Source of the DNA: a virus
Taxonomy: Duplodnaviria; Heunggongvirae; Uroviricota; Caudoviricetes
Length of the DNA stretch: 64,000 nucleotides
Reading direction: 5' to 3' (one strand)
IMG/VR virus record: IMGVR_UViG_3300024268_000040
This document shows positions 14,964-34,443 of this stretch, piece after piece (position 1 is the stretch's first letter; the number at the start of each line of letters is the position of its first letter). The notes beneath the pieces were generated by a model. It was not told the DNA's origin. It ran no database searches and saw nothing but the letters and a program-made list of their open reading frames with translations. The translations under genes were made by a program, and so were the position numbers.

Positions 14964-15716
14964 ATGTATCAAATTTATAAAATAACTAATCAAAAAAATG
15001 GAATGGTCTATATTGGTTCATCAATTGAAGTTGAACGCAGATGGAGACAACATAAAGAAGCTTCCATTAATGAGAAAGACCATCATTATAATTATCCTTT
15101 AATGATTGCTTTTAGAGAGTTCGGTATTGATAATTTTACTTTTGAGATTATTGAAACTCTACCTTCTTGGGAAGAGATGATTGAAGCCGAACATAATTGG
15201 ATTGTAAAAGAAGATTGTGTAAAACCAAAAGGCTACAATCAGACTGATAAAACTGATAGCCCAATGTTTGATCCCTCTATCGCAAAAAAAATGAGTGATA
15301 CTAAACGAGTTAAATATGGTAAAAAAGTTTGTGAAATCTCTTCTAATAAAGAAATTGTCGGAGCATGGAATTCGTTAGCAGAAGCTGGTGAAAACACGGG
15401 TCTTGACCGATTTAAGATTAGTGATGTGTGCAATGGCCGACGTTTAACCACCGGAGGTAGAGTGTTTAGATTTACTGATGAAGAAGGTAATTTAATTGAA
15501 CCTGAAATAAAAGTAAATAAAACTCAAACCAGTAGAATTACAAAATCCAGTAGGAAAGTTGTAAAAATGAATGATAATAATGAAGAATTACAAGTTTATG
15601 ATAGCGTAGCACGTGCGGCCGCAGATAATAATTGCGACGCAAGTGCCATATCAAAAGTTTGTAACGGTTCAAGAAATAAATGTGGAGGTTTTAAATGGAA
15701 ATACCTAACAATGTAA
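14964..15716 (+). CDS. GIY-YIG homing endonuclease, free-standing, standard alphabet (no TAG).
   Basis: IYKITNQKNGMVYIGSS...RRWRQH motif set, with a C-terminal DNA-binding region. Inserted between the gyrB-arm ORF and the full topoisomerase gene. Confidence 0.85.
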   Translation: MYQIYKITNQKNGMVYIGSSIEVERRWRQHKEASINEKDHHYNYPLMIAFREFGIDNFTFEIIETLPSWEEMIEAEHNWIVKEDCVKPKGYNQTDKTDSPMFDPSIAKKMSDTKRVKYGKKVCEISSNKEIVGAWNSLAEAGENTGLDRFKISDVCNGRRLTTGGRVFRFTDEEGNLIEPEIKVNKTQTSRITKSSRKVVKMNDNNEELQVYDSVARAAADNNCDASAISKVCNGSRNKCGGFKWKYLTM

Positions 15717-17614
15717 ATAATGCTGAATATGGCGTTAATCAAATTAAAACCTTGGAAGGAATTGAAGCAATTCGTCTTCGTGCGGGAATGTATATCGGAA
15801 GTGTTGGACCCGAAGGTGTCAGACACATCACACTCGAAATCATTTCTAATGCAGTTGATGAATATTTAAATGGACATTGTACTCATTGCACCATTGACGT
15901 TGGAGAAGATGGCGTAATTTGTATTCATGACAATGGTCGTGGCGTTCCTTTTGGCAAGGCTGAGGATGGTAGTGAAGTTTTAGTTAATGTTTATACCAAG
16001 CTTCATACTGGTGCAAAGTTTGATAGCTCTGGCAAGACTGGCTATAATACCTCCGGTGGTATGAATGGTGTCGGTGCTAAAGCAACAAATGCATTGTCTG
16101 AAATTTTTACTGTTGTATCTTATCGTGACGGTAAAAAGGCTACAGCCGAATTTGCTCGTGGCGAGTTATTAAAATATAATGAAGTACAAGATCCCAATCA
16201 AAAAGTTACCGGCACAGCTATTATGTTTAAACCAGATGCCACCATTTTTAAAGAAGGCATTATGCTTGAATACGCTCCTCTCAAGAAGCAAATCCAAGAG
16301 TTAGCTTACTTATCTCCTGGCTTAGTATTTGAACTAAACTATAAAGACACTAAAGAAACTATTACTTCTCAAAACGGTATTCGTGATTACATTAATGACC
16401 TAAACGATGGTAAAAATAAAGTAACTTCTGTATTCTATACTGAAAGTATGGAAGATAGAATTGGTGTAAAAATTGCTATGCAATATAATGATACTTATAC
16501 TGATATGTATCGCTTATATACCAACTCCATTCCCAATAGTGCGGGAACCCACTTGACCGGTTTCAGAACCGCGCTCACTTCTACAATCAACGAGTATGCT
16601 CGTGAAAAAAAGCTACTCAAAGAAAAAGATGCCAATATTACTGGTGAAGAATTGAAGGAAGGTTTAGTTCTTGTCCTGTCCTTCATTATGCCTGACCCTG
16701 TTTTCTCCGGTCAGACAAAGGATGTTCTCTCCAGTAGTGAGGCTCGTACCGCAGTACAACGATTGACCGCAAGAGAAATTAAAGTTTGGCTTGATGCAAA
16801 TCCAAAAGATGCCAAAGCAATCGTAGATAAGGCTCTTCTGGCTCGTGCGGCCCGTGAAAAGGCAAAGAAAGCCAAGGAAACCGTGCGGAAGGTCGATAAT
16901 AAGCGGCGTGTACTCTTACCTGATGTATTGAGTGATGCCAACTCTAAGGATCGTCACCTCTGTGAAGTATTCCTCGTTGAGGGTAAATCCGCTGCCGGTA
17001 CTACAATCGAAGCTCGTGACCGCAATACCCAGGCTGTTTTCCAGCTTCGTGGTAAGATTTTGAATGTTTTGAAAACTGATTTACATAAGGCTCTTCAGAA
17101 TAAGGAAATTAGCGGTATGATTGACGCCTTCGGTTTGGAAGTTAAAGATGGTAAGGTTATCGTTGATGAATCTAAGCTGAGATATGGCAAGATTATTATC
17201 ACCGCGGATGCTGATGTCGACGGAAGCCACATTCGAGTCCTGTTCCTTACATTCATTTGGAAATTCTGTCCCGAGCTTATTGAAAAGGGATATATTTATG
17301 CAGCAGTACCTCCTCTATATAAAGCAACATATGGTACCAATATCAAGTATCTCGTAAATGATGCTGCGCTCAATGAATTTAGAGCTGGTATGAAGAGATC
17401 TTTTGAGCTGGGTCGTATGAAAGGCTTAGGTGAGATGGACCCAGATGAAATGGCTGAAACTGTTATGAATGCTAAGACTCGTATTCTTAAACAGATTACT
17501 ATGGAAGACGCAGCAGCAGTCGCGCAGACATTTATGAGTTTAATGGGAGAGTCGGTTACGCCCAGAAAGAAGTTCATTGAAGAGAACTCTTGGAGGGCTA
17601 ATATTGATGTCTGA
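15695..17614 (+). CDS. Type IIA DNA topoisomerase ATPase/TOPRIM subunit (GyrB/ParE/T4 gp39-like), 639 aa, TAG-free.
   Basis: GHKL motifs (EIISNAVDE, DNGRGVP, GG.NGVG). TOPRIM motifs (LVEGKSAAG, ADADVDGSHI). Confidence 0.9.
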   Translation: MEIPNNVNNAEYGVNQIKTLEGIEAIRLRAGMYIGSVGPEGVRHITLEIISNAVDEYLNGHCTHCTIDVGEDGVICIHDNGRGVPFGKAEDGSEVLVNVYTKLHTGAKFDSSGKTGYNTSGGMNGVGAKATNALSEIFTVVSYRDGKKATAEFARGELLKYNEVQDPNQKVTGTAIMFKPDATIFKEGIMLEYAPLKKQIQELAYLSPGLVFELNYKDTKETITSQNGIRDYINDLNDGKNKVTSVFYTESMEDRIGVKIAMQYNDTYTDMYRLYTNSIPNSAGTHLTGFRTALTSTINEYAREKKLLKEKDANITGEELKEGLVLVLSFIMPDPVFSGQTKDVLSSSEARTAVQRLTAREIKVWLDANPKDAKAIVDKALLARAAREKAKKAKETVRKVDNKRRVLLPDVLSDANSKDRHLCEVFLVEGKSAAGTTIEARDRNTQAVFQLRGKILNVLKTDLHKALQNKEISGMIDAFGLEVKDGKVIVDESKLRYGKIIITADADVDGSHIRVLFLTFIWKFCPELIEKGYIYAAVPPLYKATYGTNIKYLVNDAALNEFRAGMKRSFELGRMKGLGEMDPDEMAETVMNAKTRILKQITMEDAAAVAQTFMSLMGESVTPRKKFIEENSWRANIDV

Positions 17615-17837
17615 GTATCATGGATACTGGTTTTATGGGTTGAGAAATGATGAAATTATCCAAGCAAAAGATTTAGCTGAAGAGTATTGTCTTTTGAATT
17701 GTCCCCAGGAATATGATGGGCCATTCACATATGAAGCATAGGTGATTCGTTATCGCCTTGCCAATCCAACCCTAAGTCGCGATTTCAATCAAATGCTAAA
17801 AGATATGGAGAAATTTTATTATGGCGAATGTAATTAA
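17607..17837 (+). CDS. Small hypothetical protein with one TAG (17739).
   Basis: ATG overlaps the topoB stop. 76 codons ending at TAA. Confidence 0.3.
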
Positions 17838-18914: not shown

Positions 18915-19128
18915 GAAACTGCAATATGTCCGTCCCACCTATGATAAACATTTCAATTTTTTGACGCCAGAAGGAATCGAATATGTCGAAACTTCTGGCA
19001 TCGATGCAGAAGAAATGGAAGTTAAAATTGATATTTTGGCTTCAGAATTATGGTTTTGTCAGCATATGACTGACTATATTTCAAATCTTATAAAAGTACA
19101 ACTAGAAGATGTAAAGGAGGATCCCTAA
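18889..19128 (+). CDS. Hypothetical protein.
   Basis: 79-aa ORF bridging rnhA and the topoA gene. Confidence 0.3.
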   Translation: MPRIATWDEKLQYVRPTYDKHFNFLTPEGIEYVETSGIDAEEMEVKIDILASELWFCQHMTDYISNLIKVQLEDVKEDP

Positions 19129-21503
19129 TGGGAGATATACTTCAAACACCTATTATCGAAGAAGTGGAACAAAGCTTCATTGATTATAGTATGAGCGTTA
19201 TTACCGATCGTGCGATCCCCTCCGCAGAAGACGGTTTGAAACCTGTTGCTCGTCGTATCCTTTGGGATATGTTCGACAAAGGTTATATGAATAATAAAAA
19301 GTTTGTCAAGTGCGCGCAGCCGGTTGGCGATACGATGGGTCGCTTTCATCCGCACGGCGATAGCTCCATTTATGGCGCACTTGTATGGTTATCTCAACCT
19401 TGGAATATGAGATATCCTCTCATTACATTCCACGGTAATAATGGTAGCCGAGATGGATATGAGCCTGCTGCATATCGTTATACAGAGTGTAAGTTATCCA
19501 AAGCTGGTGAAGAAATGCTTGCTGACATCAAAAAGAACACTGTTGATTGGCGGTTAGCATATACTGATGTTGAGGACGAGCCTACATATCTCCCTGGTCG
19601 CATCCCCAATTTGATTGTCAATGGTACTTCCGGTATTGCCGTTGCAATGGCTTGTAGCTTTGCACCGCACAATATGAATGAGGTTATGGATGCAGCTTGC
19701 CATGTTTTGAATAACCCTAATTGCGATGTAAAAGACATTTTGAACTTCATCGCAGGACCCGATTTCCCAACCGGTGGCACAATCATTAACAAGGATGAGT
19801 TGCCCGCTGCATATCTGACTGGTAAGGGTCGTGCTCGTATTAGGGGTGAATATGTAGTCGAGTCTTTTAAATCTGGCGACCGTATTGTTTTCACCTCAAT
19901 TCCTTATAAGGTTTCCAAAAAAGACCTAATTGAGGATATTGACAAACTCTGTGAAGAAGGTAAAATTGAAGGTATTGTATCTATTCGTGATGAGAGTAAT
20001 AAAGATGGTGTGCGTTTTGTAATCGAATGCGCCAAAGGTGTATCTACTGAGCCCATTATCGCAAAACTCTTTAAACTCTCTCGCTTAGAGGACACATATA
20101 GCTTCAACCAGGTTGCTCTAGTAGATAAGAAGCCTCGTCTATTGAATATGAAGCAACTTTTGGAAATCTATATTGACCACCAGAAGGATGTTCTGTTGAG
20201 AAAAACTAAATATGAGGCTGATAAGATTGCCGACCGCATTCATATCTTAGAAGGCTTATTGAAGGCTTTAGAAGATATTGATAATGTGATTGCACTTATC
20301 AAGGGTTCAGAGAATGCGGCAGCCGCTAAGGTGGTACTCATGGCTAAGTACGGCCTGTCTGAGGCCCAGGCTAAGGCGATCTTAGACATGAAATTAGCTA
20401 AATTAGCTAAGTTAGAAAAAATTGAGATTGAGAATGAGAAAGCTGAATTAGAAATTGAATTAGCCAGATTGAATACTATCTTGGCTAATCCTGTACCAGA
20501 GCTGGAAAATATTTTCAAATCTCTGAAAAAGACATATGGTGATGCTCGTCGTTCAACCATCACTCAAGTCGCAACCACCAAGGAAGAAAAAGAAATTGAG
20601 TTTGTTGAGCCGGAGAAGTGCGTTGTCATTATGACAGAAGGCGGTCTCGTCAAGAGAATCTCTGCAACGAGCTTCCGCACCCAGAAGAGAAATGGAAAGG
20701 GCGTAAAAACCCAGGATGATATTACTCATGCAGTAATTCGTACCAATACTATTGACTCTCTGATGATTTTCTCTGACAAGGGTAAGATGTATCGTCTACT
20801 TGTCAATGATGTTCCAGTAGGAACAAATGTAAGCAAGGGTACTTCCATCAAGTCACTTATCAATATGGATATGGACGAACAACCTGCGGTCATGTACTCT
20901 ATCTATCGTGATACTGATGCCGCATATGTTTTATTCGTAACTAAAAATGGATTAGTCAAGAAAACTTTTTTGGAAGAGTATATCAAGACTAAGAAAAAGA
21001 CTGGAATTGCAGCTATTACTATCAAAGATGGAGATGAGCTGGCCGCAGTTTCTCTCGTCAAAGACGAACAATTGATTTTGGTTACCAAGAATGGTATGGC
21101 TATTCGTTTCGATTCTAAGGAAGTAAGTCCTACCTCTCGTGCGACTTCTGGTGTAAAGGGTATTAATCTTGCTGAGGATGATACCATCGTAGCCGCATTG
21201 CCCGTACGCAACCAAGAGGACAAGTTGGCAATTTTCGCTTATGGTGGAATGGCAAAGAAAATTCCTCTTAGTGAGCTGCCTCTCCAAAAGAGAGCAGGTA
21301 AGGGCCTAATGTGCTATAAGCCTACTGATTCTACAGGTGATGTGAGTGCGGCCACCCTAGTTGAAGATACTGATAGTGTCTTAATTTTGGGTGATAAGAG
21401 CAGCATCTGTATTGAAGCTGCTGAAATCCCGCTATTAAGTCGTCCTTCTGTGGGTAATTTAGTTATTAAAAATAGTAAAATCTTATCTGTAAGCAAGGTA
21501 TGA
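19128..21503 (+). CDS. Type IIA DNA topoisomerase DNA-cleavage subunit (GyrA/ParC/T4 gp52-like), 791 aa, TAG-free.
   Basis: AIPSAEDGLKPVARRILW and the active-site region AAYRYTECKLS. Confidence 0.9.
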   Translation: MGDILQTPIIEEVEQSFIDYSMSVITDRAIPSAEDGLKPVARRILWDMFDKGYMNNKKFVKCAQPVGDTMGRFHPHGDSSIYGALVWLSQPWNMRYPLITFHGNNGSRDGYEPAAYRYTECKLSKAGEEMLADIKKNTVDWRLAYTDVEDEPTYLPGRIPNLIVNGTSGIAVAMACSFAPHNMNEVMDAACHVLNNPNCDVKDILNFIAGPDFPTGGTIINKDELPAAYLTGKGRARIRGEYVVESFKSGDRIVFTSIPYKVSKKDLIEDIDKLCEEGKIEGIVSIRDESNKDGVRFVIECAKGVSTEPIIAKLFKLSRLEDTYSFNQVALVDKKPRLLNMKQLLEIYIDHQKDVLLRKTKYEADKIADRIHILEGLLKALEDIDNVIALIKGSENAAAAKVVLMAKYGLSEAQAKAILDMKLAKLAKLEKIEIENEKAELEIELARLNTILANPVPELENIFKSLKKTYGDARRSTITQVATTKEEKEIEFVEPEKCVVIMTEGGLVKRISATSFRTQKRNGKGVKTQDDITHAVIRTNTIDSLMIFSDKGKMYRLLVNDVPVGTNVSKGTSIKSLINMDMDEQPAVMYSIYRDTDAAYVLFVTKNGLVKKTFLEEYIKTKKKTGIAAITIKDGDELAAVSLVKDEQLILVTKNGMAIRFDSKEVSPTSRATSGVKGINLAEDDTIVAALPVRNQEDKLAIFAYGGMAKKIPLSELPLQKRAGKGLMCYKPTDSTGDVSAATLVEDTDSVLILGDKSSICIEAAEIPLLSRPSVGNLVIKNSKILSVSKV

Positions 21504-21688: not shown

Positions 21689-21768
21689 TTCGTGTTTGGG
21701 TATAGAGTAATTATAGACGAAGACATAAGATTTCTATATATTGACGTCTATGATTTCTATGAGTTGAC

Positions 21769-21797
21769 AAAATGAAAAAAATTTTCTATAATATATA
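21769..21797 (+). promoter_or_regulatory. Promoter TTGACA-17-TATAAT.
   Basis: ttgaca aaatgaaaaaaattttc tataat upstream of ligA. Confidence 0.5.
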
Positions 21798-21816: not shown

Positions 21817-23808
21817 ATGGATTGTATTTATGATAAAATTCGTTTTTTAGTACGATATTTAAATGATTGTACTAAAGCCTACGATGAAGGAAATCCAAAA
21901 ATTACAGACGAAGAATGGGATAATAAATATTTTGAGTTGAAATCTTTAGAAGAAGAAACAGGATTAGTTTTATCTAATTCTCCTACTCAAACTATTACTT
22001 ATGAAGTTGTAAATGCTTTATCCAAAAGCGAACATAATCATAAGATGTTATCTCTTGATAAAACCAAATCTCTTGATGAAGTTGCTTCCTTTGTTGGAAA
22101 CAAAGAAATCTTGGCGATGCTAAAAATGGATGGTTTGACCTGTTCCTTGATGTATCGTGATGGAGAATTGGTGTCTGCGGAAACCCGAGGTAACGGTCTT
22201 GTAGGCGAGAACATTCTGCATAATGCACGAGTGCTTCCGTCCGTTCCGTCAAGAATCCCCTATAAGGGCGATTTAGTCATTGATGGCGAGATTATTTGCA
22301 CCTATACTAATTTCGAGCAATTCAGTAATGACTATAAAAATCCTCGAAATTTTGCCGCAGGAAGTATTCGTCTTTTGGACGCTAAGGAGTGCGCCCGCCG
22401 CAATCTAACTTTTGTTGTATGGGATATTATTACCCCTATGTATTTCGACAATGGAAATGAGTACAAACTAAATCAAAAACTTGATTATGTTGGTGCTTTT
22501 GGATTTACTCCAGTTCCATATGTCGGATTACCGGCAAAAGACGCAGATGGTTTTGCTATTTCACTTGATGATGTAGTAGACCATTTGACCGAACAAGCCA
22601 AACAGCTCGGTTATCCGATCGATGGTGCGGTGTTTAAGTTCAATGATTGTGAATATGGTCGCTCTCTTGGTGAAACCGGGCATCATTTCAAAAATGCATT
22701 AGCATACAAATTCTACGATGAAACCTATACTACACGACTTTTGGATATTGAATGGACTATGGGTAGGACCGGAGTCCTTACGCCTGTCGCTGTCTTTGAG
22801 CCAATCGACGTAGATGGCTCTACCGTAGAAAGAGCAAGCCTACACAATATTAATATTATGGATGAAATTTTCGGACCAATGGGAGCATTTAGGTTCCAAG
22901 AGATCGAAGTTTTCAAGGCGAATATGATTATTCCGCAGGTTAAATCTGCTAATCTAAATTGTTGTAGATATGAAGAATATTTACTTCGCATTCCAAAAGT
23001 ATGTCCTGTGTGCGGTGGTGAGGTAAGAGCAAGAGTTACTCTTGATTCTATAATGCTCATATGTGCTAATCCAAGCTGTGATGGTAAACTAATCAATCGT
23101 CTTGATCATTTCTGCGGTAAAAAAGGTCTTGACATTAAGGGTATTTCTAAAGCTACTTTAGAAAAACTGATTGATTGGGGTTGGTTAGATAGTAATGCTG
23201 GTATTTTTGAATTAGCTCAATACAAGGATGAATGGGTCAAAAAGCCTGGATTTGGTATCAAATCCGTCGAGAAGGTTTTGGATGCTATTAGTGCCAGTAG
23301 TGAATGTGAGTTACGTCAATTCATCGCTGCTCTCGGCATTCCGCTGATTGGATCAACGGCATCTAAAGATTTAGCTAAACACTTCAAGGATTGGCAGAGT
23401 TTCATGCAGGCTGTGGAGAGTAAGTTCCCGTTCTATGAACTGCCTAACTTTGGAGCTGAGATGCATTCCAGTATTCTCCATTTCGATTATAGTGAAGCAA
23501 TATTTATTGCTAATAACTATATTCATTTCAAATCAATTGCGGAAGTCGCAGATCCGTCCGCTGGAGCGGATCTAACTGGTAAAGTTTTTGTAATTACTGG
23601 AAAACTCACTCATTTCAAGAATCGTGATGAAATCAAGGCACGAATTGAGGCTCTTGGGGGAAAAGTGACTGGATCTGTTTCCAAGAACACTAATTACCTC
23701 ATCAATAATGATGTGAATTCAACTTCCTCCAAGAACACGACCGCCAAGTCGTTGGGGATTCCAATCCTGTCCGAAGATGACTTCATTCAGACTTTTGGAA
23801 TCATGTAA
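21817..23808 (+). CDS. ligA: NAD-dependent DNA ligase.
   Basis: KxDG adenylation motif (LKMDGLTCSL). Cys4 zinc finger (CPVCGGEV...CANPSC). HhH region and a C-terminal BRCT domain. Confidence 0.9.
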   Translation: MDCIYDKIRFLVRYLNDCTKAYDEGNPKITDEEWDNKYFELKSLEEETGLVLSNSPTQTITYEVVNALSKSEHNHKMLSLDKTKSLDEVASFVGNKEILAMLKMDGLTCSLMYRDGELVSAETRGNGLVGENILHNARVLPSVPSRIPYKGDLVIDGEIICTYTNFEQFSNDYKNPRNFAAGSIRLLDAKECARRNLTFVVWDIITPMYFDNGNEYKLNQKLDYVGAFGFTPVPYVGLPAKDADGFAISLDDVVDHLTEQAKQLGYPIDGAVFKFNDCEYGRSLGETGHHFKNALAYKFYDETYTTRLLDIEWTMGRTGVLTPVAVFEPIDVDGSTVERASLHNINIMDEIFGPMGAFRFQEIEVFKANMIIPQVKSANLNCCRYEEYLLRIPKVCPVCGGEVRARVTLDSIMLICANPSCDGKLINRLDHFCGKKGLDIKGISKATLEKLIDWGWLDSNAGIFELAQYKDEWVKKPGFGIKSVEKVLDAISASSECELRQFIAALGIPLIGSTASKDLAKHFKDWQSFMQAVESKFPFYELPNFGAEMHSSILHFDYSEAIFIANNYIHFKSIAEVADPSAGADLTGKVFVITGKLTHFKNRDEIKARIEALGGKVTGSVSKNTNYLINNDVNSTSSKNTTAKSLGIPILSEDDFIQTFGIM

Positions 23809-23811
23809 TTG

Positions 23812-23840
23812 ACAAAAAGAAAAAAATTTTGTATAATAAA
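23812..23840 (+). promoter_or_regulatory. Promoter TTGACA-17-TATAAT.
   Basis: ttgaca aaaagaaaaaaattttg tataat. Confidence 0.5.
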
Positions 23841-24071: not shown

Positions 24072-24100
24072 TTGACAAAAGAAAAATTTTTTGATATAAT
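24072..24100 (+). promoter_or_regulatory. Promoter TTGACA-17-TATAAT.
   Basis: ttgaca aaagaaaaattttttga tataat. Confidence 0.5.
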
Positions 24101-24502: not shown

Positions 24503-25492
24503 ATGGAATGGTTGATTTTACTCGCCTCTGTGCTCGTTGCTGCCGGATTAGGCGGCTTTATCACATATCGACTGTTTAGATAGCGGCTATTTGCCGTCCA
24601 GGAGTTCGACAAGTCGATTGCTATGAAAAACGAGCAATTAAGAGAAGAAAATAAGATTTTAGAAGAGAATAATCAAGATTTATTCAATCAAAATGATTAT
24701 CTAAAATCTGAAAAAATCAAGCTGGATATTCAAAACCAATCTGCTAAAGAGTAGTTGGAGAGCCTCAATGGCAGTATCTCAGCTATGGAAAAGTAGGCTC
24801 AAGAGGCCGCTGAACTATTCTATGCGTCTCGTATGTAGGCTGCATAGGAGAAACTCGCGCAATCACTTCAAGAAGAAAACCAAAAATATCAAGATAATAT
24901 AATTGGTTTTTAGACTGAATATGATAAAACTGTTGCTGATATGTTAGAAGCTTTTCAAGAGTTATCTGATAATGTAGCTGTTATGCGAGCTACAAATGAC
25001 GCCGCAGTTGCCGCAGCCAAGAGAGCCGCTGAAATGAAAGATTAGTAGGCTTTTTATCGCATTTAGTTATCTGACGCAGATATTCACGAAATTGAATTAT
25101 TGCGATAGGTTGAACCCTATTTGCGAGATAAGGAGCCTTTGAATAAAGTCATATGGAAATGCTATTACGAAAAACCAACCACCGACCTTATTGGTCGAGT
25201 AATTGGTACAGGAGTAAAAACTGGAATTTATAAAATTACAGAAATTGAAACTGGTAAATGCTATGTTGGTTAGGCTGCTAATTTAGCAGACCGTTGGAAA
25301 TAGCATATTAAGCGTGGTGTAGGCGCAGAAACGCCAACCCGCAACAAACTCTATCCTGCAATGATTGCGGCCGGCCCAGAGAATTTCACTTTTGAGGTCG
25401 TCGAAATCTGCGATCGCTCTGCGCTCGATGCGCGTGAGGACTACTGGCAGGATTATTTCAAGGCGAAAGAATTTGGATACAGTATAAAGTAA
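24503..25492 (+). CDS. Membrane-anchored coiled-coil protein with a C-terminal GIY-YIG nuclease domain; 12 in-frame TAG codons in 330.
   Basis: N-terminal TM MEWLILLASVLVAAGLGGFI, then a long coiled coil, then GIYKITEIETGKCYVG-Q-AANLADRWK-Q-HIKRG...ENFTFEVVEICD...ARE.YW. The TAGs fall where the two other phage GIY-YIG proteins have Gln (YIGQS, RWRQH). Ends at TAA 25490. Confidence 0.7.
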
Positions 25493-25783: not shown

Positions 25784-26674
25784 ATGACAAAAGCAGATAA
25801 ATATATGTATCATATGATTGTAGAAATTATGCGTTATGGATATAAGGATATTAATCCTCGTCCTAAGTACGCAGACGGCACTCCCGCGCATACAATTTCT
25901 GTCAATCACACTTTTCGTAAATACGATTTGAGTAACGGAGAATTTCCGATCTGTACCCTCCGTCCGCAGGCTTGGAAAACTGGTATCAAAGAAATTTTTA
26001 CCATTTACTAGAAGCCAACCAATGATATCGCAACTATGCACGAAATGGGTGTGACTTGGTGGGATGAGTGGGACATCGGCGACGGCACTATCGGTCAGCG
26101 CTATGGTGCTACTGTAAGTCGTTATGACCTTATTAATAATCTTATCAAAGATATTGAGAAAGACCCATATGGTCGTCGCAAAATTGTAAGCCTATGGCAG
26201 GAACAGGATTTACATGAGACTCCTGGCCTCGCCCCATGTGCCTTCCTTACCATTTGGAATGTGCGTGGCGAATATCTTGATATGATGCTGGTTCAGCGTA
26301 GTGGTGATATGCTTACTGCTTCTGGTCCAGGAGGTATCAACGAAATTCAGTATGCGGCATTGCTGATGATGATTGCGCGACACACAGGTTATAAGCCCGG
26401 TGTATTTAGCCATGTCGTTGCAAACGAGCAGATTTACGATCGTCATATGGATGCCGCTAAAGAGATGATGGCGCGTTACAGCGCTCGTGATCTCGAAGAA
26501 CAATATGCTTGGGATGAAGGTTATCAAGATAATACTAATGCTGAAATTTTCCAGCGTCCACGCATGGACCTCAATCCCGCAAAAACCAATTTCTACGATA
26601 TGACTATCGAAGATTTTGAATTGACTGGTTATCATCCCACCAAACCTCAACTGAAACTGGAGCTGGGTATATGA
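25784..26674 (+). CDS. thyA: Thymidylate synthase ThyA with one in-frame TAG (26009).
   Basis: SD gagga before ATG 25784. Listed ORFs 25706 and 26036 share a frame. EIFTIY-Q-KPTNDI aligns with E. coli ELLWFL-Q-GDTNIA. Catalytic LAPCAF (PCHA-like) motif. Confidence 0.9.
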
Positions 26675-27611: not shown

Positions 27612-28553
27612 ATGAAAAAGACTATGATCAATCAATCCCACATTGAAGGAATTTTATACGAGCACAGCCTGGAGGCCAAGGTTTCTGGCGATACTTCCAA
27701 GAACCCCGGCACTCCCTTCATCACTGGTACTATCAGCATCGCAACTGATGATGCTATGACTAACATTGTGCCCGTTCATTTCACTTATGTGACTGCTACT
27801 TTTGGCTCTGGTAAGCCTAACGATACTTACACCACTCTGAATAACATCGTGAATGGTACTTTCGGTACTTACATGAAGGATGGCGCCGATAAGGCTGTCA
27901 AGCTTCGTGTTGACTCTGCTTTGGGTCTGAACGAGTTCTATACTGACCGCAACGGTAAGGAAGAGCTGGTTTCCGCTAAGCGCAACGAGGGTGGTTTCGT
28001 TCATAAGGTTGATACTTTGGACGAAGACGAGAAGGTTCGTAACACCTTCAAGGCTGATATGGTTATCACCACTGCTACTTTGGTAGAGGGCGATCCCGAG
28101 AAGAATACTGTTGACAAGGTAATTGTCAAGGGTGCTATTTTCGACTTCCGTAAGAGCCTGCTTCCCGTTGAGTTCAGCGCTACTAATAAGAACGCTATGA
28201 ACTACTTCCTTGGTCTGGGAGCTTCCATTAAGAACCCTGTTTTCACCTGCGTATGGGGTCGTCAGGTATCTGAGACCATCGTTCGCCAGATCGTAACTGA
28301 GTCTGCTTTCGGTGAGGACGAAGTTCGTGAAGTAAAGAACACTCGTCGTGATTTCGTTATCACTGGCGCCGCTAAGGAGCCTTATGTATGGGATGACGAG
28401 GGCTCTATCACTGCTGCTGAGCTGAATGAAGCTATCCAGAAGCGTGAGGTTGATTTGGCTGCAATGAAGCAGCGTCAGGATGAGTACCGTGCTTCTAAGA
28501 ACCGTATCACTCCTGCCAATGCAGCTCCCGCACAGGGCGGATTCAATTTCTAA
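27612..28553 (+). CDS. Hypothetical protein, possibly the ssDNA-binding partner of the Sak4-like ATPase.
   Basis: 313 aa. GC-rich, TAG-free. The N-terminal beta-rich region has an OB-fold-like pattern. Sits directly upstream of the Sak4-like gene. No strong motif. Confidence 0.3.
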   Translation: MKKTMINQSHIEGILYEHSLEAKVSGDTSKNPGTPFITGTISIATDDAMTNIVPVHFTYVTATFGSGKPNDTYTTLNNIVNGTFGTYMKDGADKAVKLRVDSALGLNEFYTDRNGKEELVSAKRNEGGFVHKVDTLDEDEKVRNTFKADMVITTATLVEGDPEKNTVDKVIVKGAIFDFRKSLLPVEFSATNKNAMNYFLGLGASIKNPVFTCVWGRQVSETIVRQIVTESAFGEDEVREVKNTRRDFVITGAAKEPYVWDDEGSITAAELNEAIQKREVDLAAMKQRQDEYRASKNRITPANAAPAQGGFNF

Positions 28554-28579: not shown

Positions 28580-29551
28580 ATGGCAATTGATTTGTTGGCT
28601 TTACAGCCTCATAAAGTTTCTCGTGACCTTAGTGGTTACATCACATATATCTACGGCGCTCCTAAGTGCGGCAAGACCACTCTTGCCGCCCAGATGGAGA
28701 AGCCTTTGCTTCTCGCCTTCGAGCCTGGTTACCACGCTCTGCCTGGCGTAATGGCACAGGATGTTACTTCCTGGGCTGAAATGAAGCAGGTTTATCGTCA
28801 GTTGAAAATGCCTGAGGTCCAGGCTATGTATCGTTGTGTTATTATCGACACTATCGACATCGCTGCTGACCGTTGCAAGAAGTATATCTGCAATCAGAAT
28901 GGTATCGAGGACTTGGGCGATCTGGGTTATGGTAAGGGTTGGACCAAGTTTAAAGAAGAGTTCAACGAAGTCTTCCGTGGTTTGACTCAGCTCGGCTATG
29001 CTGTGTTCTTTATCGGGCACGAAAAGCTGGAAGTTGTCGACAATCCCGATGGCACTAAGACTACTAAGATTCGTCCTCAGTTGAGCAACTCCACCAAGAC
29101 TGTTATCGCTGGTATGGCTGACATTTATGGTTATGCCCACCAGAAGGCAGCTGGTGAGATGTCTGTTCTGACTCTGCGTGATGGTTCCGGTATCATTGAG
29201 TGCGGCTGCCGCTTCAAGTATATGCCCGTTGAAATTGTTATGAGTTACAAGAACCTCGTCAATGCTTTGAATGAAGCTATTGATAAGGAAGCTGAGGAGA
29301 CTAATAATATGTTCGTTACTAACGAGCGCATTGTGGCTCCTACTGAGATATCTTATGACTATGATGCTCTGATGGCTGAATTCCAGGATCTGGTAGGCCA
29401 GTTGATGAGCCGTGGCACTACCAACGGCCCCAAGATTACTGCTATTGTTGAGAAGTATCTGGGTAAGGGCAAGAAGGTTAGCGACACCATTCCTGAGCAG
29501 GCTGAATTCGTAAGTCTGATCGTAAGCGACATCAAAGCTGACCTCATGTAA
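28580..29551 (+). CDS. Sak4-like RecA-fold ATPase (AAA_24 family), putative recombination/annealing protein.
   Basis: YITYIYGAPKCGKTTLA Walker A, ...CVIIDTID Walker B, FFIGHEK. Confidence 0.7.
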   Translation: MAIDLLALQPHKVSRDLSGYITYIYGAPKCGKTTLAAQMEKPLLLAFEPGYHALPGVMAQDVTSWAEMKQVYRQLKMPEVQAMYRCVIIDTIDIAADRCKKYICNQNGIEDLGDLGYGKGWTKFKEEFNEVFRGLTQLGYAVFFIGHEKLEVVDNPDGTKTTKIRPQLSNSTKTVIAGMADIYGYAHQKAAGEMSVLTLRDGSGIIECGCRFKYMPVEIVMSYKNLVNALNEAIDKEAEETNNMFVTNERIVAPTEISYDYDALMAEFQDLVGQLMSRGTTNGPKITAIVEKYLGKGKKVSDTIPEQAEFVSLIVSDIKADLM

Positions 29552-29632: not shown

Positions 29633-29647
29633 GAAAGGAGCATCATA

Positions 29648-30310: not shown

Positions 30311-30313
30311 TGA

Positions 30314-31362
30314 ATGGCGTCTAAATACGTCGATACAACAGCTATAATGTAGGTTATTGGCTGTGTTTTCAATACTCCTCAACTTTTGGAAATTACTGAT
30401 AGGTATTCAATCGTTGATGAAGATTTCGCCGATCCGTTTCACAAAACGATTTTCGGTGCAATTTATAAAATCCATGAGTTAGGTGCGAATAAAATTACAT
30501 TAGAAAGCATTTCTGATTTCTTCGCATCTCGACCCAAGAGCGCGGCTGTATATAAGCAAGGGAAGGGCGAAGAATGGCTACTCAAGGTATCTGAGAGTAG
30601 TATTCCATCAGCCTTCGATTATTATTACGGTCGTTTGAAAAAATTCTCTCTATTGAGAGCATTTGATAACTGCGGCATTGATGTTACTGACATTTATGAC
30701 CCAGATAATATTTTGGATGTAAAGAAGAAACAACTTCAAGAGGATCAATTAGATAATTCTTCACTGGAACAGATTGCTGATATTGTCGATGCGAAGATTG
30801 ATAATATTAGATTGCAATATGTTGATGATGCTTTTGGTGAAGCTCAACAAGCCGGTGAAGGTATTTTTGATTTGATTGAGAAATTCAAACAGCATCCAGA
30901 AGTCGGTGTACCTCTATATGGTCCGCTAATCAATACAGTTACTCGAGGCGCAAGACTGAAGAAATTTTACTTGCGGTCTGCGGCTACTGGTATCGGTAAG
31001 ACCCGTTCAATGATTGCGGATTGCTGCTACATCGGCTGCAATAAGATATATGATGAAACATTTGGTTGGATTGGCAGCGGTCCTGCAGAGCCAGTCTTAT
31101 TTATCACGACCGAGCAGGAGCTTGAAGAAATCCAAACTATGATGTTGGCATTTTTATCAAATGTAAATGAGGAACATATTCTAAATGGTGAGTATGGTGA
31201 GGGTGAGGAAGAGCGTGTTATGCAGGCTGCTAAACTCTTGAAAGAAAGTCCTATTTATGTTGAAGAATTACCAGATTTCTCATTGAAAGATGTAGAAGAT
31301 AAGATAAAGAAAAATATTCGTGAGCACGATGTAAAATATGTGTTCAACCCTATTAAAAGGGT
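30314..31362 (+). CDS. dnaB: DnaB-family replicative helicase, exon 1 (3' boundary approximate, 31347-31362). TAG at codon 13.
   Basis: SD gaggaagggga before ATG 30314. The N-terminal domain, Walker A SAATGIGKT and H1a region run into ...HDVKYVF. The read-through ORF hits TGA at 31373 inside intron sequence. Confidence 0.7.
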
Positions 31363-32435
31363 GTTGGGACAATGAAACACTTTTCCGCTAATCAGCGGGG
31401 TACCTGCGGCGGGCCCGGTCAAAGACCGGCGAACCGAGCAACCGCAAGTGCTAACGGGGAACCCTAAACAGTAATGCATGGGAATCCCGTGGGAAACTTT
31501 GGACGGAACTAGTCAATTGAGCTTTGACTTCTTTCATACTATAATGAAAGGAGTGGTTCTATGGGAATTATTTATTGTTTTACAAATAATGTAAATGGTA
31601 AAAAATATATCGGACAATCCATTAGCAAAGGTAATGCTCGATATAATAATCATAAAAGCAGTTATAAAAATCCAGATGATTGTGAATATGAATCTCCACT
31701 TCATCGAGCATTCCGCAAACACGGATTTGAAAATTTTACTTATGAAGTATTAGCACAAGATGTTGAAAATATTGATTTATTAAATCAATTAGAAATTCAA
31801 TATATTCAACAATATAATTGTCAAATACCAAATGGTTATAATATTGAACCCGGCGGTAAAAATTGTGCTAAACCCAAAACAATAGAGCATAGAAAGAAAG
31901 AAATTTGGGCTCAAGCGAAATTGACAGAAGAAGAAGTTATTGAATTAAGAAAGGCATATCAAAGAAAAGAAAGTCCTACTAAAATATATAAAGAAAAGTA
32001 TGAAGATATAATGCATTATAATTCTTTTCTAAATATTTGGTCTGGACGAAGATATGCTCTTATTATGCCAGAAGTATTTGAAAATGGACGTCATACAAAA
32101 CTCAATGCTGAAACTGTAAAACTTATTAGAAAGGATAGAGAAGAAACAAATCTTTCTTATGATAAGTTAGCAGAGAAGTATGGCATTTCAAAAGGCACTA
32201 TTGCTGACATAATCAAAAAACGAACTTGGAAAGATGTCTAAAGAACCTGTATCGACTATCCCCCAGGCCTTCTGGGCGGGGGAGTAGGGGTGCTATTGAT
32301 ACGCACTTGGATTTTAGGAAACGAAGTCCATTAAATGCCGAAACGGTGTCCTGCGGGACCCGGTCAGCCGTTCGCTGAACCGGGGCGACCGCAGTAAAAG
32401 ATAGTCAGCGCTTATAGAAATATAAGAGTCCGTTG
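31363..32435 (+). mobile_element. Group I intron (td-like core) carrying a GIY-YIG homing endonuclease gene; boundaries approximate.
   Basis: IGS candidate aacac (31376) complements exon gtgtt. aacggggaacc...ggaatcccgtgg resembles the td-intron P4-P6 core. R-like ggtcaaagaccgg and S-like aagatagtcagc elements are present. P9 hairpin cttata-gaaa-tataag before a terminal G. Coding resumes in frame ...DYIHTSLKILEE. Confidence 0.55.
31561..32241 (+). CDS. Intron-encoded GIY-YIG homing endonuclease.
   Basis: GIIYCFTNNVNGKKYIGQS...R..NH motifs. C-terminal HTH-like DNA-binding region. Its own SD aaaggag. Confidence 0.85.
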   Translation: MGIIYCFTNNVNGKKYIGQSISKGNARYNNHKSSYKNPDDCEYESPLHRAFRKHGFENFTYEVLAQDVENIDLLNQLEIQYIQQYNCQIPNGYNIEPGGKNCAKPKTIEHRKKEIWAQAKLTEEEVIELRKAYQRKESPTKIYKEKYEDIMHYNSFLNIWSGRRYALIMPEVFENGRHTKLNAETVKLIRKDREETNLSYDKLAEKYGISKGTIADIIKKRTWKDV

Positions 32436-32946
32436 CCACGATTATATTCATACGAGTTTGAAAATTTTGGAAGAAATCACTAAGCGTTCTGGTGGTGTCA
32501 AACTGAGAGAAGATAATATCTTGTTTATGTTATCTACTCGATTGAAAGATATCTGCAACCAACATGGTGTGTTTATCATGTCAGCCACTCAGTTGAACGG
32601 TGATTACCAGGATAGTAAAACTCCAGACCAGAACTTACTGCGTGGTGCGAAAGCTATCGCAGATAAGATTGACTATGGCTCCATTCTTCTTTCTGTAAAA
32701 GATGATGATTTGGTAGCCTTAGAAAATATATTATCCTCTAATATTTTTGAAAGACCTACAATTAAGATGTCAATTTACAAAAATAGACGAGGTAGATATA
32801 AGGGCGTAATTTTATGGTGTAAGGCAGATTTGGGCGTGTGTCGTATTAAACCAATGTTCTGCACTACCTATGATTATGAAATGGTGAGTATTGACGATGT
32901 TCGTATTAGAATTGACGAAGAATCAGCCTTCGAGTGCGAAGAGTAA
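32436..32946 (+). CDS. dnaB: DnaB-family helicase, exon 2 (5' boundary approximate).
   Basis: NILFMLSTRLKDICNQHGVFIMSATQLN matches the DnaB H3/H4 region EISRSLKALAKELNVPVVALSQLNR. Stop TAA 32944. Confidence 0.7.
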
Positions 32947-33022
32947 TCGAGGGCTGAGAGCAAAAGCTAATTTGTTACATGATTCCGATTTTGGAATTGT
33001 AAATAAGAAGGAGATAAATGAA

Positions 33023-33340
33023 ATGGCTGATTTTGTAAAAAACGATAAGAGAAATAACAACAACGGTAAGAAGAACTTCAATCGCAACAACAACCGCCCC
33101 AATAACAAGCCTAACAATGGTTTTACCGGCAAGAAGCGTGACACTGTGCCCGCTCCCGATGTTTGCGCCGGCACCGTCGAGTACAAGATGGGTAAGCTGA
33201 TGGCTGATGAAATCCTCAAGGCTGCCAAGGGTAAGAGTGGCAAGTTACCCAAGCCCGCACATGAGATTCTGTGCGATTATGTAAATACTCAGATGGGTCT
33301 GAAAGGATACTGCGTCAAGGTTCTTGTTGATATCAACTAA
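33023..33340 (+). CDS. Small basic Asn-rich protein, possibly nucleic-acid binding.
   Basis: SD aaggag before ATG 33023 within listed ORF 32891..33340. Confidence 0.35.
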   Translation: MADFVKNDKRNNNNGKKNFNRNNNRPNNKPNNGFTGKKRDTVPAPDVCAGTVEYKMGKLMADEILKAAKGKSGKLPKPAHEILCDYVNTQMGLKGYCVKVLVDIN

Positions 33341-34443
33341 TGTTGGTATTTGATAAAACCAAAATCCGTGAGGCTCTCACCGACGAAAATGTATTCGATT
33401 TACTTCAAGAATGGGGCGGAGATCCGAGTCGAGACACATTCGGCTTCGTCTCCGCTACCATCTGTCACAACCCTCCTGGTGAAGGTAGTAGAAAGCTATA
33501 TTACTATGAAAACACCGGCTTGTTCCGCTGCTACACTGGCTGCGATAGTTATTTCGATATTTTCGAGTTGACAGCCAAGGTCGCTCAGATTCAATGGCAT
33601 AGAGAGTTCGACCTAAATGACGCAGTAAGGTGGATCGCTCAAAGATTTGGATTTTCTGGCGACCATGAAAATAGACCAGAAGATGAAGATTTAGACGATT
33701 GGAAATACCTAGCTAACTACGAGCGAATTCAAGATATTGAGGTGAAGGATAACTCGGTTATCCTAAAAGAATATGAAAATGGTATATTGGAACGCTTCAA
33801 CTACTCGCTGAAGATAGGTCCCTGGTTGCGAGAGGGTATTACTCAGGCCGCATTAGACCAAGCAAAAATTGGTTTTTATCCAGGAGGCGACCAAATCACA
33901 ATTCCGCATTTCGATAAAGATGGTCGATTTGTGGGACTGCGCGGACGCACCCTGTGTGCGGAAGAGGGCGAGCGTTTTGGTAAGTATAGACCGATGCGTA
34001 TAAACGGACAATTATATAATCATCCTCTTGGAATGAACTTATATAACTTTAATAACAGTCGTAAGAATATTGGTGTTATGAAAAAAGCGATTATTTTTGA
34101 AGGAGAAAAATCTTGTCTGTTATATCAATCATATTTCGGATTAGAAAATGATATATCGGTTGCGTGTTGCGGTTCAAGCGTATCGGCTTGTCAGATTCAA
34201 ATGCTCTTAGACGCTGGCGCAGAAGAGATTATAATTGCGTTTGATCGCCAGTTCCAAGAAATTGGTGATGAAGAATTCAAGCATTTGAAAATGAATTTAT
34301 TGCGATTAAGAACAAAATATAAGAACTATGCAACAATATCTTTTATATTCGATAAAAATAAAATTACAGGATACAAGGACTCGCCGATCGACTGCGGGCC
34401 GCAAGTATTCCTGCAACTATTCAAAGAGAGGATAGTGTTGTAA
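33340..34443 (+). CDS. dnaG: DnaG-like DNA primase (CHC2 zinc finger plus TOPRIM).
   Basis: CHNPPGEGSRKLYYYENTGLFRCYTGC zinc-binding motif. IIFEGEKSCLL and IIAFDRQ TOPRIM motifs. Confidence 0.8.
   Translation: MLVFDKTKIREALTDENVFDLLQEWGGDPSRDTFGFVSATICHNPPGEGSRKLYYYENTGLFRCYTGCDSYFDIFELTAKVAQIQWHREFDLNDAVRWIAQRFGFSGDHENRPEDEDLDDWKYLANYERIQDIEVKDNSVILKEYENGILERFNYSLKIGPWLREGITQAALDQAKIGFYPGGDQITIPHFDKDGRFVGLRGRTLCAEEGERFGKYRPMRINGQLYNHPLGMNLYNFNNSRKNIGVMKKAIIFEGEKSCLLYQSYFGLENDISVACCGSSVSACQIQMLLDAGAEEIIIAFDRQFQEIGDEEFKHLKMNLLRLRTKYKNYATISFIFDKNKITGYKDSPIDCGPQVFLQLFKERIVL

Follow-up and report, generated by a model that had tools for sequence, protein, structure and literature searches.

The question raised by this locus is whether TAG, in a phage that uses it for glutamine (code 15), separates genes that could be translated in a naive host from genes that would need a suppressor. 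The phage is uncultured and its genome measures ~181 kb, of which the 64,000-nucleotide stretch analysed here, referred to as the window, is a part. An initial annotation of positions 14964-34443 had proposed two such expression regimes among the replication genes, a TAG-free set interleaved with a TAG-containing set, and had offered recent import of the TAG-free genes from standard-code genomes as an alternative. As described below, TAG use in the family is strongly gene-specific yet continuous, and the split proposed for the replication module can for the most part be put down to sampling noise about a low rate.

Genetic code of the window

Genes were called with TAG as a sense codon, starts being picked by Shine-Dalgarno support, and gene names were checked against Pfam and PHROGs. 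TAA or TGA closes every gene called in the window, and TAG is never a terminator. The TAGs of the window align to CAA or CAG of relatives, which makes TAG a sense codon for glutamine. The relatives have CAA 32, CAG 18 and TAG 5 at DnaB codon 13, CAA 21 and CAG 3 at RecD codon 7, and CAG 7 and CAA 5 at ThyA codon 76, all three being TAG in the window; glutamine of the window stands opposite TAG codons of relatives in 433 of 990 aligned cases. A suppressor tRNA was looked for in the window and its flanks (~80 kb together) and in 60 related loci, and none was found; neither it nor a release factor was seen in the examined part of the genome, so that both the code-switch machinery and the time at which it acts are out of view. 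One gene stands apart in composition, the SPFH gene at 722-2242, with a GC content of 54% and CAG at 33/33 Gln codons.

Distribution of TAG within the window

TAG makes up 0.44% of the codons of the window (83/18,994). A two-component mixture fitted to TAG/Gln gave p = 0.053 and 0.508 (BIC 416.5 vs 490.3 for one class), most genes using TAG for ~5% of their Gln codons and a small high-TAG set for ~51%. Bimodality is thus present in the window, but it sets the fibre-like genes, one GIY-YIG gene and a few tiny ORFs apart from the rest and does not follow the split proposed, and an extra zero-TAG class received a weight of zero. The high-TAG set consists of a GIY-YIG nuclease gene (24503-25492), a few tiny ORFs and five genes of putative fibre function:

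7492-8928, minus strand: fibre-like paralogue A, high-TAG class, 6 TAG
9099-10886, plus strand: fibre-like paralogue B, high-TAG class, 5 TAG
12254-14329, minus strand: fibre-like paralogue C, high-TAG class, 11 TAG
50504-52240, minus strand: fibre-like paralogue D, TAG at 7/12 Gln codons
56086-58287, minus strand: fibre-like gene E, TAG at 9/16 Gln codons

Paralogues A, B and C are clustered at 7492-14329, with a high-TAG mixture posterior of 1.0; a family search with the fibre-like genes returned no family match. Three further genes belong to the low-TAG class:

3220-7426, plus strand: PIN-PhoH, multi-domain lysin and small membrane protein, with 1, 4 and 1 TAG

A separate leader motif (7 matches vs 0.16 expected) is common to the lysin and to fibre-like A-D, four of the five fibre-like genes.

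The ~1% background assumed in the initial annotation is confined to the five fibre-like genes and gene 24503-25492. In the module at 14534-50442 the TAG rate is 0.27%, or 0.13% when that gene is left out together with three tiny ORFs. Without these four outliers, 26 genes are TAG-free where 26.0 are expected (P = 0.64, conditioned on gene sizes), and TAG-free genes hold 6,215 codons against 5,874 expected (P = 0.30). The TAG-free block, held to be very unlikely by chance, is therefore what chance predicts, and the original argument was circular because the classes had been defined by their outcome. Since most genes use TAG for only ~5% of their Gln codons, its absence from short or Gln-poor genes is chance.

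The tallies themselves fared better. The TAG-free set, counted as GyrB, GyrA, LigA, two GIY-YIG genes, RNase H, DHFR, the 27612 protein, Sak4/AAA_24, primase, NrdG, dUTPase and RuvC, does carry zero TAG (0 among 121 Gln codons), but it comprises 4,400 rather than ~3500 codons. The one to four TAGs per gene reported for the other set were also recovered (PolIII alpha, DnaB, RecD-like, Gmk, ThyA and PIN-PhoH 1 each, NrdD 2, RecJ 3, lysin 4). The TAG-free genes contain 53 CAG codons, each one transition away from TAG, so their low TAG reflects selection rather than missing opportunity.

The membrane-anchored GIY-YIG gene

24460-24487, plus strand: intrinsic-terminator-like hairpin (10-bp stem, then a T run), directly 5′ of the 12-TAG gene
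24503-25492, plus strand: membrane-anchored GIY-YIG nuclease gene (Pfam GIY-YIG 4e-9), 12 TAG in 329 codons

This gene is the real TAG outlier within 14964-34443. Its product has a hydrophobic N-terminal helix, a long helix (residues 2-184 form a helix in the AF2 model) and a GIY-YIG nuclease at the C-terminus, and no Shine-Dalgarno site lies upstream of the gene. It carries 12 of the 17 TAGs between those positions and had gone unlisted.

Gene-specific TAG use across related loci

The remaining genes of the module under discussion are the following:

14534-14605, inside ORF 14534-14866, plus strand: displaced native 5′ end of gyrB (ORF calls, Pfam)
14964-15716, plus strand: GIY-YIG homing-endonuclease ORF (GIY-YIG 1), 0 TAG, but region 14534-15716 has just 11 Gln codons
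15695-17614, plus strand: GyrB-type topoisomerase subunit (Pfam DNA_gyraseB, Toprim, HATPase_c), 0 TAG
19128-21503, plus strand: GyrA-type topoisomerase subunit (Pfam DNA_topoisoIV 1.9e-139), 0 TAG
21817-23808, plus strand: NAD-dependent DNA ligase, LigA (Pfam), 0 TAG
25784-26674, plus strand: thymidylate synthase, ThyA (Pfam 2.4e-57), 1 TAG, codon 76
27612-28553, plus strand: YorF-like protein, 0 TAG
28580-29551, plus strand: Sak4/AAA_24, 0 TAG
30314-32946, plus strand: dnaB (Pfam DnaB, DnaB_C), 1 TAG, codon 13
33340-34443, plus strand: primase (PHROG 47, 3e-33), 0 TAG
35158-36897, plus strand: RecJ-like exonuclease (Pfam DHH, RecJ_OB), 3 TAG
38650-39825, plus strand: RecD-like helicase (Pfam AAA_30, UvrD_C_2), 1 TAG, codon 7
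39886-43779, plus strand: PolIII alpha, 1 TAG, codon 59
43983-47394, plus strand: Gmk, NrdD and NrdG (Pfam/PHROGs), 1, 2 and 0 TAG
48909-49935, plus strand: dUTPase and RuvC (PHROGs), 0 TAG each

The dnaB gene is split by a 1.09-kb insertion (~31346-32436) containing a GIY-YIG ORF (31561-32241), while DnaB of relatives is a single contiguous 514-aa ORF.

Among 83 related loci examined, 34 form a non-redundant TAG-recoded set, in which TAG was compared with other Gln codons per gene by a CMH test stratified by locus, whose P values ignore residual relatedness of the 34 loci. TAG is avoided in GyrA (0/408 Gln codons, 19 loci, q = 1e-9), GyrB (1/267, 19 loci, OR 0.03, q = 5e-7), LigA (0/195, q = 4e-4), DnaB (OR 0.2, q = 3e-5), NrdD (OR 0.38) and PolIII alpha, one of the strongest avoiders (5/555, OR 0.06, q = 8e-16). 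A weaker or non-significant trend is seen for the YorF-like protein (OR 0.26), RNase H and ThyA (0/42, CAG or CAA at the codon-76 site); Sak4 is also TAG-poor (OR 0.40), and RecD has an OR of 0.57. Primase (30/204, OR 1.29, not significant) and dUTPase are neutral. Enrichment is found in the 24503-25492 GIY-YIG family (CMH OR 9.3, q = 6e-63), Gmk (OR 6.2), RuvC (41/104, OR 5.7, q = 5e-19), RecJ (79/321, OR 3.05, q = 2e-13) and NrdG (OR 2.3). By lineage, TAG occurs in 18/18 for the GIY-YIG nuclease, 14/14 for RecJ and 11/12 for RuvC, against 1/18 for GyrA, 1/19 for GyrB, 0/15 for LigA and 4/13 for PolIII alpha. In weakly recoded lineages nearly all module TAGs are confined to the same few genes; in one of them (L013), the sole TAG among 6,391 aligned codons lies in the GIY-YIG gene. 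Classes built from relatives alone predicted TAG use in the window, where TAG accounts for 3/158, 9/159 and 18/102 of their Gln codons.

Judged by these relatives, the proposed membership is wrong for about half of the genes: PolIII alpha, DnaB and NrdD, placed in the TAG-containing class, are significant avoiders (ThyA points the same way, not significantly), and of the TAG-free class RuvC and NrdG show enrichment, with primase and dUTPase neutral. Family TAG/Gln forms a continuum, a beta-binomial distribution beating two to five discrete classes (BIC 3075 vs 3191 for two). Of the two regimes, gene-specific TAG tolerance stands, every recoded relative having a near-TAG-free replication core; the discrete classes do not.

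Promoters and probable shared operons

Perfect TTGACA-17-TATAAT promoters number 4 vs 0.09 expected, all on the plus strand of the module, and include:

21764-21792, plus strand: perfect sigma-A-type promoter, 5′ of LigA
39822-39850, plus strand: perfect sigma-A-type promoter, 5′ of PolIII alpha

Promoters and ribosome-binding sites look like the Firmicutes type. TAG/Gln shows no correlation with distance from a promoter. Operons with host-type promoters appear common to TAG-rich and TAG-free genes, and any such control would therefore be translational.

Comparison with known recoded phages

Borges et al. (bioRxiv 10.1101/2021.08.26.457843) described gut phages of the Lak, crAss-like, Jade, Sapphire, Agate, Garnet, Amethyst and Topaz clades, partly TAG-to-Gln (code 15), with early genes in standard code, late structural and lysis genes in alternative code and 'variable' replication machinery. 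The present phage shares with them in-frame TAG at Gln sites, recoding of only part of the genes and close relatives that differ in code, and the same sort of test was applied there, TAG vs CAA plus CAG by gene family. It differs in that the strongest TAG bias of the examined region belongs not to lysis-cassette genes but to the membrane-anchored GIY-YIG nuclease of the replication module, with RuvC, Gmk and RecJ next, and in that suppressor tRNA and release factor are unseen in the available genome part. Code 15 has been confirmed experimentally in crAss-like phages (Peters et al., Nat Commun 2022, PMC9523058), which likewise use TAG as Gln in a presumed standard-code host; they represent another lineage and presumed host phylum, and here recoding is read from sequence, and sigma-A promoters and strong Shine-Dalgarno sites are found. 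The large gut phage phAss-1, of the proposed Phassvirus, has TAG aligned to Gln of homologues in 28% of ORFs and three tRNA-Sup(CTA) genes (Babkin et al. 2023, PMC10607447), whereas no tRNA-Sup was found in the ~80 kb examined here; no sequence relationship to phAss-1 is shown, the best GyrA match in the phage collection being 41% identical. SNIPE is a bacterial membrane-bound GIY-YIG nuclease that requires DUF4041 for function (Nature 2026, PMC13190303). The predicted 24503-25492 protein resembles it in its N-terminal transmembrane helix, elongated middle and C-terminal GIY-YIG nuclease, but is phage-borne, has no DUF4041 detected by Pfam, and PF01541 is the sole domain of its listed homologues.

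Graded TAG use as a probable translational gate

Recent import from standard-code genomes, which would leave the TAG-free genes too young for TAG, is very improbable. The SPFH gene is a compositional outlier, and GIY-YIG 1 lies in a mobile cassette and has copies in only 4 related loci; against this, the two classes do not differ in GC3 (0.358 vs 0.359, P = 0.49) or codon usage (RSCU correlation 0.92, mean 0.91 for random splits), and most related loci carry the TAG-free core genes, GyrA, GyrB, LigA, Sak4 and YorF-like orthologues occurring in 30-56 of them at 46-88% identity. The discrete two-class model with its listed membership is improbable as well. Its counts were right, and in the family TAG is scarce in GyrA, GyrB, LigA, Sak4 and the 27612 protein and abundant in RecJ and Gmk, but the chance-level number of zero-TAG genes, the weightless zero class, the misassigned avoiders and enriched genes and the continuous family distribution all oppose it. 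We infer that the listed split is impossible as a functional partition of the replisome, because DnaB and PolIII alpha, which the replisome requires, carry TAG here, so that replication cannot precede suppression.

A stronger rival, though still unlikely, gives TAG no regulatory role: once the code had changed, TAG would drift in as a synonym of CAA/CAG that imperfect suppression makes slightly costly, and would be purged in proportion to general constraint, length or required yield, leaving the gradient as a side effect of mutation, selection and drift and not a timing device. The continuous distribution agrees with this, as does the fall of TAG/Gln with conservation (rho = -0.39) and gene length (rho = -0.43), and general constraint rather than timing may lie behind part of the gradient. 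The TAGs of PolIII alpha, RecD and ThyA and that at NrdD codon 132 are unique to the present genome, those of DnaB and NrdD together nearly so, and the N-terminal clustering of TAG in the window is absent in relatives. However, genes of similar conservation show opposite TAG use: LigA (52% median identity) has 0/195 and RecJ (59%) 79/321, and RuvC (42%) has 41/104 and NrdD (47%) 25/415. A costly TAG is also hard to reconcile with its ~50% share of Gln codons in fibre-like and GIY-YIG genes, and nearly unrecoded lineages hold the region's TAGs mainly in the GIY-YIG gene.

We consider it probable that graded, gene-specific TAG use, with TAG read as Gln and no two-class split inside the replication module, acts as a translational gate; the underlying pattern has already been published (Borges et al.). 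The labels early and late follow from function and promoters, and since DnaB and PolIII alpha of the present genome contain TAG, suppression would already be active at the start of replication, which weakens a strict early/late reading. Before a phage suppressor tRNA-Gln(CUA) is on hand, UAG would act as a stop. Selection would purge TAG from proteins needed first or at full yield, and a near-TAG-free replication core would fit translation without the suppressor, while in late-acting or early-harmful proteins TAG would be tolerated or even favoured.

Gene content and genetic code

Reading TAG as a sense codon merges many fragmented ORFs of the window (GC 38.5%) into long ones, and the resulting table of 61 genes, with starts chosen by AGGAGG-type ribosome-binding sites, comprises 18,994 codons, 83 of them in-frame TAG. 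The gene names proposed in the initial annotation agree with Pfam and PHROGs. Megablast returned no close annotated phage relative of the window, and the best protein match of GyrA in the phage collection reaches 41% identity. A 181-kb ENA contig carries an identical LigA, whose neighbours there have SPbeta YorF and YorH domains. The host may be Firmicutes-like, given the sigma-A-type promoters and the AGGAGG sites. An SPFH/Band_7 (flotillin-like) gene at 722-2242 is a compositional outlier (GC 54%, GC3 0.61, 33/33 Gln codons being CAG) and yet 10 related loci have it. Left of the window, 10 kb of flank (L084, 1-10000) carry an NAD-related set, namely a phosphoribosyltransferase, YqeY, SIR2, NAPRTase, NAD synthase, NADAR and an NMNAT-like protein; 16 consecutive TAG-free genes there (73 Gln codons) are followed by two genes with two TAG each.

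For comparison, 80 related loci from viral contigs, 46-88% identical, were gathered with GyrA and PolIII alpha queries; their ORFs were translated with TAG as sense and matched to the window proteins, and TAG was counted inside the aligned regions. In-frame TAG falls at glutamine sites of homologues, as in code 15, and encodes glutamine in this phage. DnaB codon 13, a TAG in the window, is CAA in 32, CAG in 18 and TAG in 5 relatives; RecD codon 7 and ThyA codon 76, both TAG in the window, are CAA in 21 and CAG in 3, and CAG in 7 and CAA in 5, respectively. In the GIY-YIG nuclease gene at 24503-25492 (+), hereafter the 24503 gene, codon 257 is CAA in 24, TAG in 12 and CAG in one, and codon 267 likewise aligns with CAA or CAG. 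Conversely, 433 of the 990 TAG codons of the relatives align to Q of the window protein. Terminators are TAA or TGA in 61/61 window genes and 21/21 flank genes, a check that is partly circular since the window genes were called with TAA and TGA as sole stops; TAGs near gene ends align to CAA of relatives and give no sign of TAG as a terminator.

ARAGORN detected no tRNA in the window, no suppressor tRNA(CUA) in the window and its left and right flanks L084 and L087 (~80 kb of the 181-kb genome), and none in 60 related loci. SIR2 and NAPRTase queries, two steps leftward of the window, matched no relatives, and an Rfam search of the whole window gave no match.

Distribution of TAG in the window

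Binomial mixture modelling of the TAG share of Gln codons separates two classes of window genes (p = 0.053 and 0.508; BIC 416.5 vs 490.3 for one class), the high-TAG class consisting of five fibre-like genes, the 24503 gene with its 12 TAG and a few tiny ORFs.

Fibre-like genes of the high-TAG class (mixture model)
7492-8928, fibre-like gene
9099-10886, fibre-like gene
12254-14329, fibre-like gene
50504-52240, fibre-like gene
56086-58287, fibre-like gene E

Pfam, PHROGs and PDB sequence searches returned no match for the fibre-like genes, whose function is inferred to be structural. In these putative structural genes, TAG makes up ~50% of Gln codons, vs ~10% in other late genes, and has almost displaced CAG (CAA 32, CAG 2, TAG 38); the lysin and a small membrane protein of the window also bear TAG. 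Paralogues A-D share the N-terminus MGxLK(V/I)NG. Downstream of fibre-like gene C, a small ORF outside the gene table (11647-12243, -) includes 5 TAG among its 198 codons. Its C-terminal motif, WICVDGTNWKQC, is repeated, with Q encoded by CAA or CAG in one repeat and by TAG in the other. At the right edge, the partial ORF 61269-63998 belongs to an LRR_5 protein of 2,225 aa (L087, 1095-7772) with 14 in-frame TAG.

Within the replication module, the initial annotation had drawn the line elsewhere, between TAG-free and TAG-containing replication genes. The former do lack TAG altogether, over 4,400 codons with 121 Gln codons rather than the ~3,500 codons estimated, and still hold 53 CAG codons; the latter carry 1-4 TAG each as described, 15 in all in 5,106 codons. 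The assumed background of ~1% of codons is too high. TAG accounts for 0.44% of codons over the whole window, 0.27% in the module (14534-50442) and 0.13% there once the 24503 gene and three tiny ORFs (17821, 47925, 48662) are set aside; only the fibre-like genes, at 0.8-1.6%, and the 24503 gene, at 3.6%, attain ~1%. When the 13 remaining TAGs were redistributed over the 36 remaining module genes by Gln codons or by length, 26.0 TAG-free genes were expected and 26 observed (P = 0.64), so that the TAG-free block, held to be very unlikely by chance, is no surprise: zero TAG is the expected outcome in most module genes because each has 2-15 Gln codons. Nor is the module bimodal, there being no excess of zero-TAG genes, and a third, exactly-zero class receives a weight of 0.00-0.08 with a worse BIC. 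For annotation, zero TAG in one gene of a recoded genome says little alone, and should be weighed against Gln content and local rate.

Gene-specific TAG use across relatives

The phage family is a mix of standard-code and TAG-recoded lineages. Standard-code relatives (L044/L055, L061, L067, L076, L078 and L079) show 0 TAG in 3,700-5,600 aligned codons each, even in orthologues of TAG-rich genes. Among 34 non-redundant recoded loci, a Cochran-Mantel-Haenszel (CMH) test stratified by locus separated genes that avoid TAG from genes enriched in it; the P values are optimistic as the loci are related, but effects are large as well as consistent.

TAG use by gene in 34 recoded loci (CMH; TAG/Gln codons or odds ratio, OR)
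GyrA: avoider, 0/408
PolIII alpha: avoider, 5/555, OR 0.06
GyrB: avoider, 1/267
DnaB: avoider, 7/322
LigA: avoider, 0/195
NrdD: avoider, OR 0.38
Sak4: avoider, OR 0.40
SPFH: avoider
RecD-like: borderline, OR 0.57
Primase, dUTPase, PIN-PhoH: neutral
NrdG: enriched, OR 2.3
RecJ: enriched, 79/321, OR 3.05
RuvC: enriched, 41/104, OR 5.7
GIY-YIG-2-like genes: enriched, OR 6.1
Gmk: enriched, OR 6.2
24503-type GIY-YIG gene: enriched, 113/356, OR 9.3

Counted by lineage, TAG occurs in the GIY-YIG gene in 18/18, in RecJ in 14/14 and in RuvC in 11/12, vs 1/18 for GyrA, 1/19 for GyrB and 0/15 for LigA. In weakly recoded relatives, the module's few TAGs fall in the same genes, and the single TAG in 6,391 aligned codons of one such locus (L013) lies in the GIY-YIG gene. 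Classes set from relatives alone predict TAG use in the window, at 3/158, 9/159 and 18/102 Gln codons; once the 24503 gene is left out, avoiders and rich genes differ at only P = 0.06. Across the family, genes form a continuum of TAG use, for which a beta-binomial (BIC 3075) is a better fit than two to five discrete classes.

About half of the class assignments made from the window are reversed or neutral in relatives. PolIII alpha, DnaB and NrdD, listed as TAG-containing, are significant avoiders, and RuvC and NrdG, listed as TAG-free, are enriched; ThyA has 0/42 Gln codons as TAG, which is not significant. What survives of the proposed two expression regimes is a gene-specific tolerance of TAG with a clean core replication set, while two discrete classes with that membership do not. 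The TAGs of PolIII alpha, RecD, ThyA and NrdD codon 132 are found at the same site in no relative, and only a few relatives have TAG at NrdD codon 684 or DnaB codon 13; in these genes, which normally exclude TAG, the codons look like recent arrivals. As DnaB and PolIII alpha carry one TAG each in the window genome, we infer that replication cannot precede suppression.

TAGs at 30350, 38668, 35200, 35218, 40060 and 44043 lie in the first 7-59 codons of DnaB, RecD, RecJ, PolIII alpha and Gmk, and TAGs of the window replication genes have a mean relative position of 0.25 (KS P = 0.001). Distinct TAG sites of relatives show no such N-terminal clustering, which is taken as a post hoc oddity of the window; restart codons were looked for after these N-terminal TAGs, and none follow.

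ALTERNATIVES

Recent import of the TAG-free genes from standard-code genomes, offered in the initial annotation as the alternative to two regimes, would fit the SPFH gene and the GIY-YIG cassettes, the only ones that look foreign or mobile. It is rejected for the set as a whole, as the two classes do not differ in GC3 (0.358 vs 0.359) and their codon usage is as similar as that of random splits (RSCU correlation 0.92), and as most related loci contain the TAG-free core genes. Purely neutral change or general constraint may explain part of the gradient: TAG per Gln codon drops as conservation (rho = -0.39) and gene length (rho = -0.43) increase, but LigA, with a median identity of 52% and 0/195 TAG, behaves in the opposite way to RecJ, with 59% and 79/321.

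Promoters, leaders and operons

Perfect TTGACA-17-TATAAT promoters number four in the window vs 0.09 expected. Each lies on the + strand in the replication module, and their A-rich spacers are similar.

Perfect promoters
21764-21792 (+), upstream of LigA
23809-23837 (+), upstream of 23871
24072-24100 (+), upstream of 24168
39822-39850 (+), upstream of PolIII alpha

Near-consensus promoters with an extended -10 precede gyrB, 27234, 29651, 38379 and 47434, and the module has 10 strong sigma-A-type promoters in all. Promoter class, suggested as a correlate of the two gene sets, does not separate them (TAG/Gln vs promoter proximity, rho = 0.23, P = 0.22). TAG-rich and TAG-free genes, e.g. PolIII alpha, Gmk, NrdD and NrdG, appear to lie in common operons, so any control by TAG would be translational. 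A separate leader, TGAGAGAARGGAG, has seven matches vs 0.16 expected, before the lysin, fibre-like A-D, g52404 and g47434.

Sites of leader TGAGAGAARGGAG
4534-4546
8938-8950
9076-9088
14338-14350
47412-47424
52251-52263
52380-52392

Two other candidate motifs showed no excess over chance, the late -10-like TAGAAATAKA (25 matches vs 23 expected) and a GGCC palindrome (3 vs 1.3).

Endonuclease insertions in dnaB and gyrB

The dnaB gene (30314-32946) is interrupted by a 1.09-kb insertion at ~31346-32436 with a GIY-YIG/HTH ORF (31561-32241). Relatives have a single 514-aa ORF across the junction ...DVKYVFH|DYIHTSLK; a conserved ORF, contiguous in relatives, is here broken by an endonuclease-bearing insert, as would be expected for a group I intron with a homing endonuclease. 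No Rfam match for a group I ribozyme core was found in the insertion at gathering score or E <= 1, and the interruption is either an intron or a truly split gene. At gyrB (14534-15790), a 1.16-kb cassette parts the native 5′ end (RBS and first 24 codons, identical to relatives) from its gene. Besides the GIY-YIG endonuclease ORF at 14964-15716, the cassette supplies a substitute in-frame 5′ end (MEIPNNVNNAEYGVNQ...). The substitute N-terminus also occurs in L037, a related locus, and the endonuclease apparently carries along a replacement for the start of the gene.

The 24503 GIY-YIG nuclease

The most TAG-enriched gene lies downstream of a terminator (24460-24487), without an SD. Its protein combines a hydrophobic N-terminal helix (residues 2-21, hydrophobic by sequence and a candidate transmembrane segment), a ~180-residue helix and a C-terminal GIY-YIG domain (PF01541, residues 240-321, 4e-9); in the AF2 model, which is of poor quality (pLDDT 62, pTM 0.22) and from which the long helix is taken, residues 2-21 lie inside it. 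It has >5,000 homologues, the best 120 mostly of 325-331 aa, and PADLOC UzuA is a further match to its C-terminus. In architecture the protein resembles SNIPE, a bacterial membrane nuclease, but SNIPE has a central DUF4041, for which the 24503 protein gives no Pfam match at E <= 0.01; among the homologues listed, PF01541 is the only domain. Membership in SNIPE was rejected as DUF4041 was not detected.

A speculative and rather unlikely reading is that amber recoding is first a translational safety lock on DNA-cutting enzymes, mainly the putatively membrane-anchored GIY-YIG nuclease of SNIPE-like architecture and then RuvC and RecJ, within otherwise standard-code, host-transcribed operons. The GIY-YIG gene, which has TAG in all recoded lineages and alone has it in the least recoded lineage, might then be where recoding began, in place of lysis or structural genes.

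Significance for recoded phages

In phages of standard-code hosts, recoding is known to be partial, early genes remaining standard, structural and lysis genes being recoded and replication machinery being variable, with codes that differ between close relatives (Borges et al., bioRxiv 10.1101/2021.08.26.457843). As exactly the same pattern is described there, the window is a new instance of a known phenomenon; similar recoded genomes have been described (PMC10607447), and code 15 in crAss-like phages has protein-level support (PMC9523058). What is possibly new is which genes are most biased, namely the putatively membrane-anchored GIY-YIG nuclease, RuvC and RecJ. Borges et al. propose that partial stop-codon recoding serves as a post-transcriptional timer for the expression of phage genes. 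This phage family offers a natural series of standard-code, weakly and strongly recoded relatives with the same replication module, in which the order of TAG acceptance among genes is reproducible.
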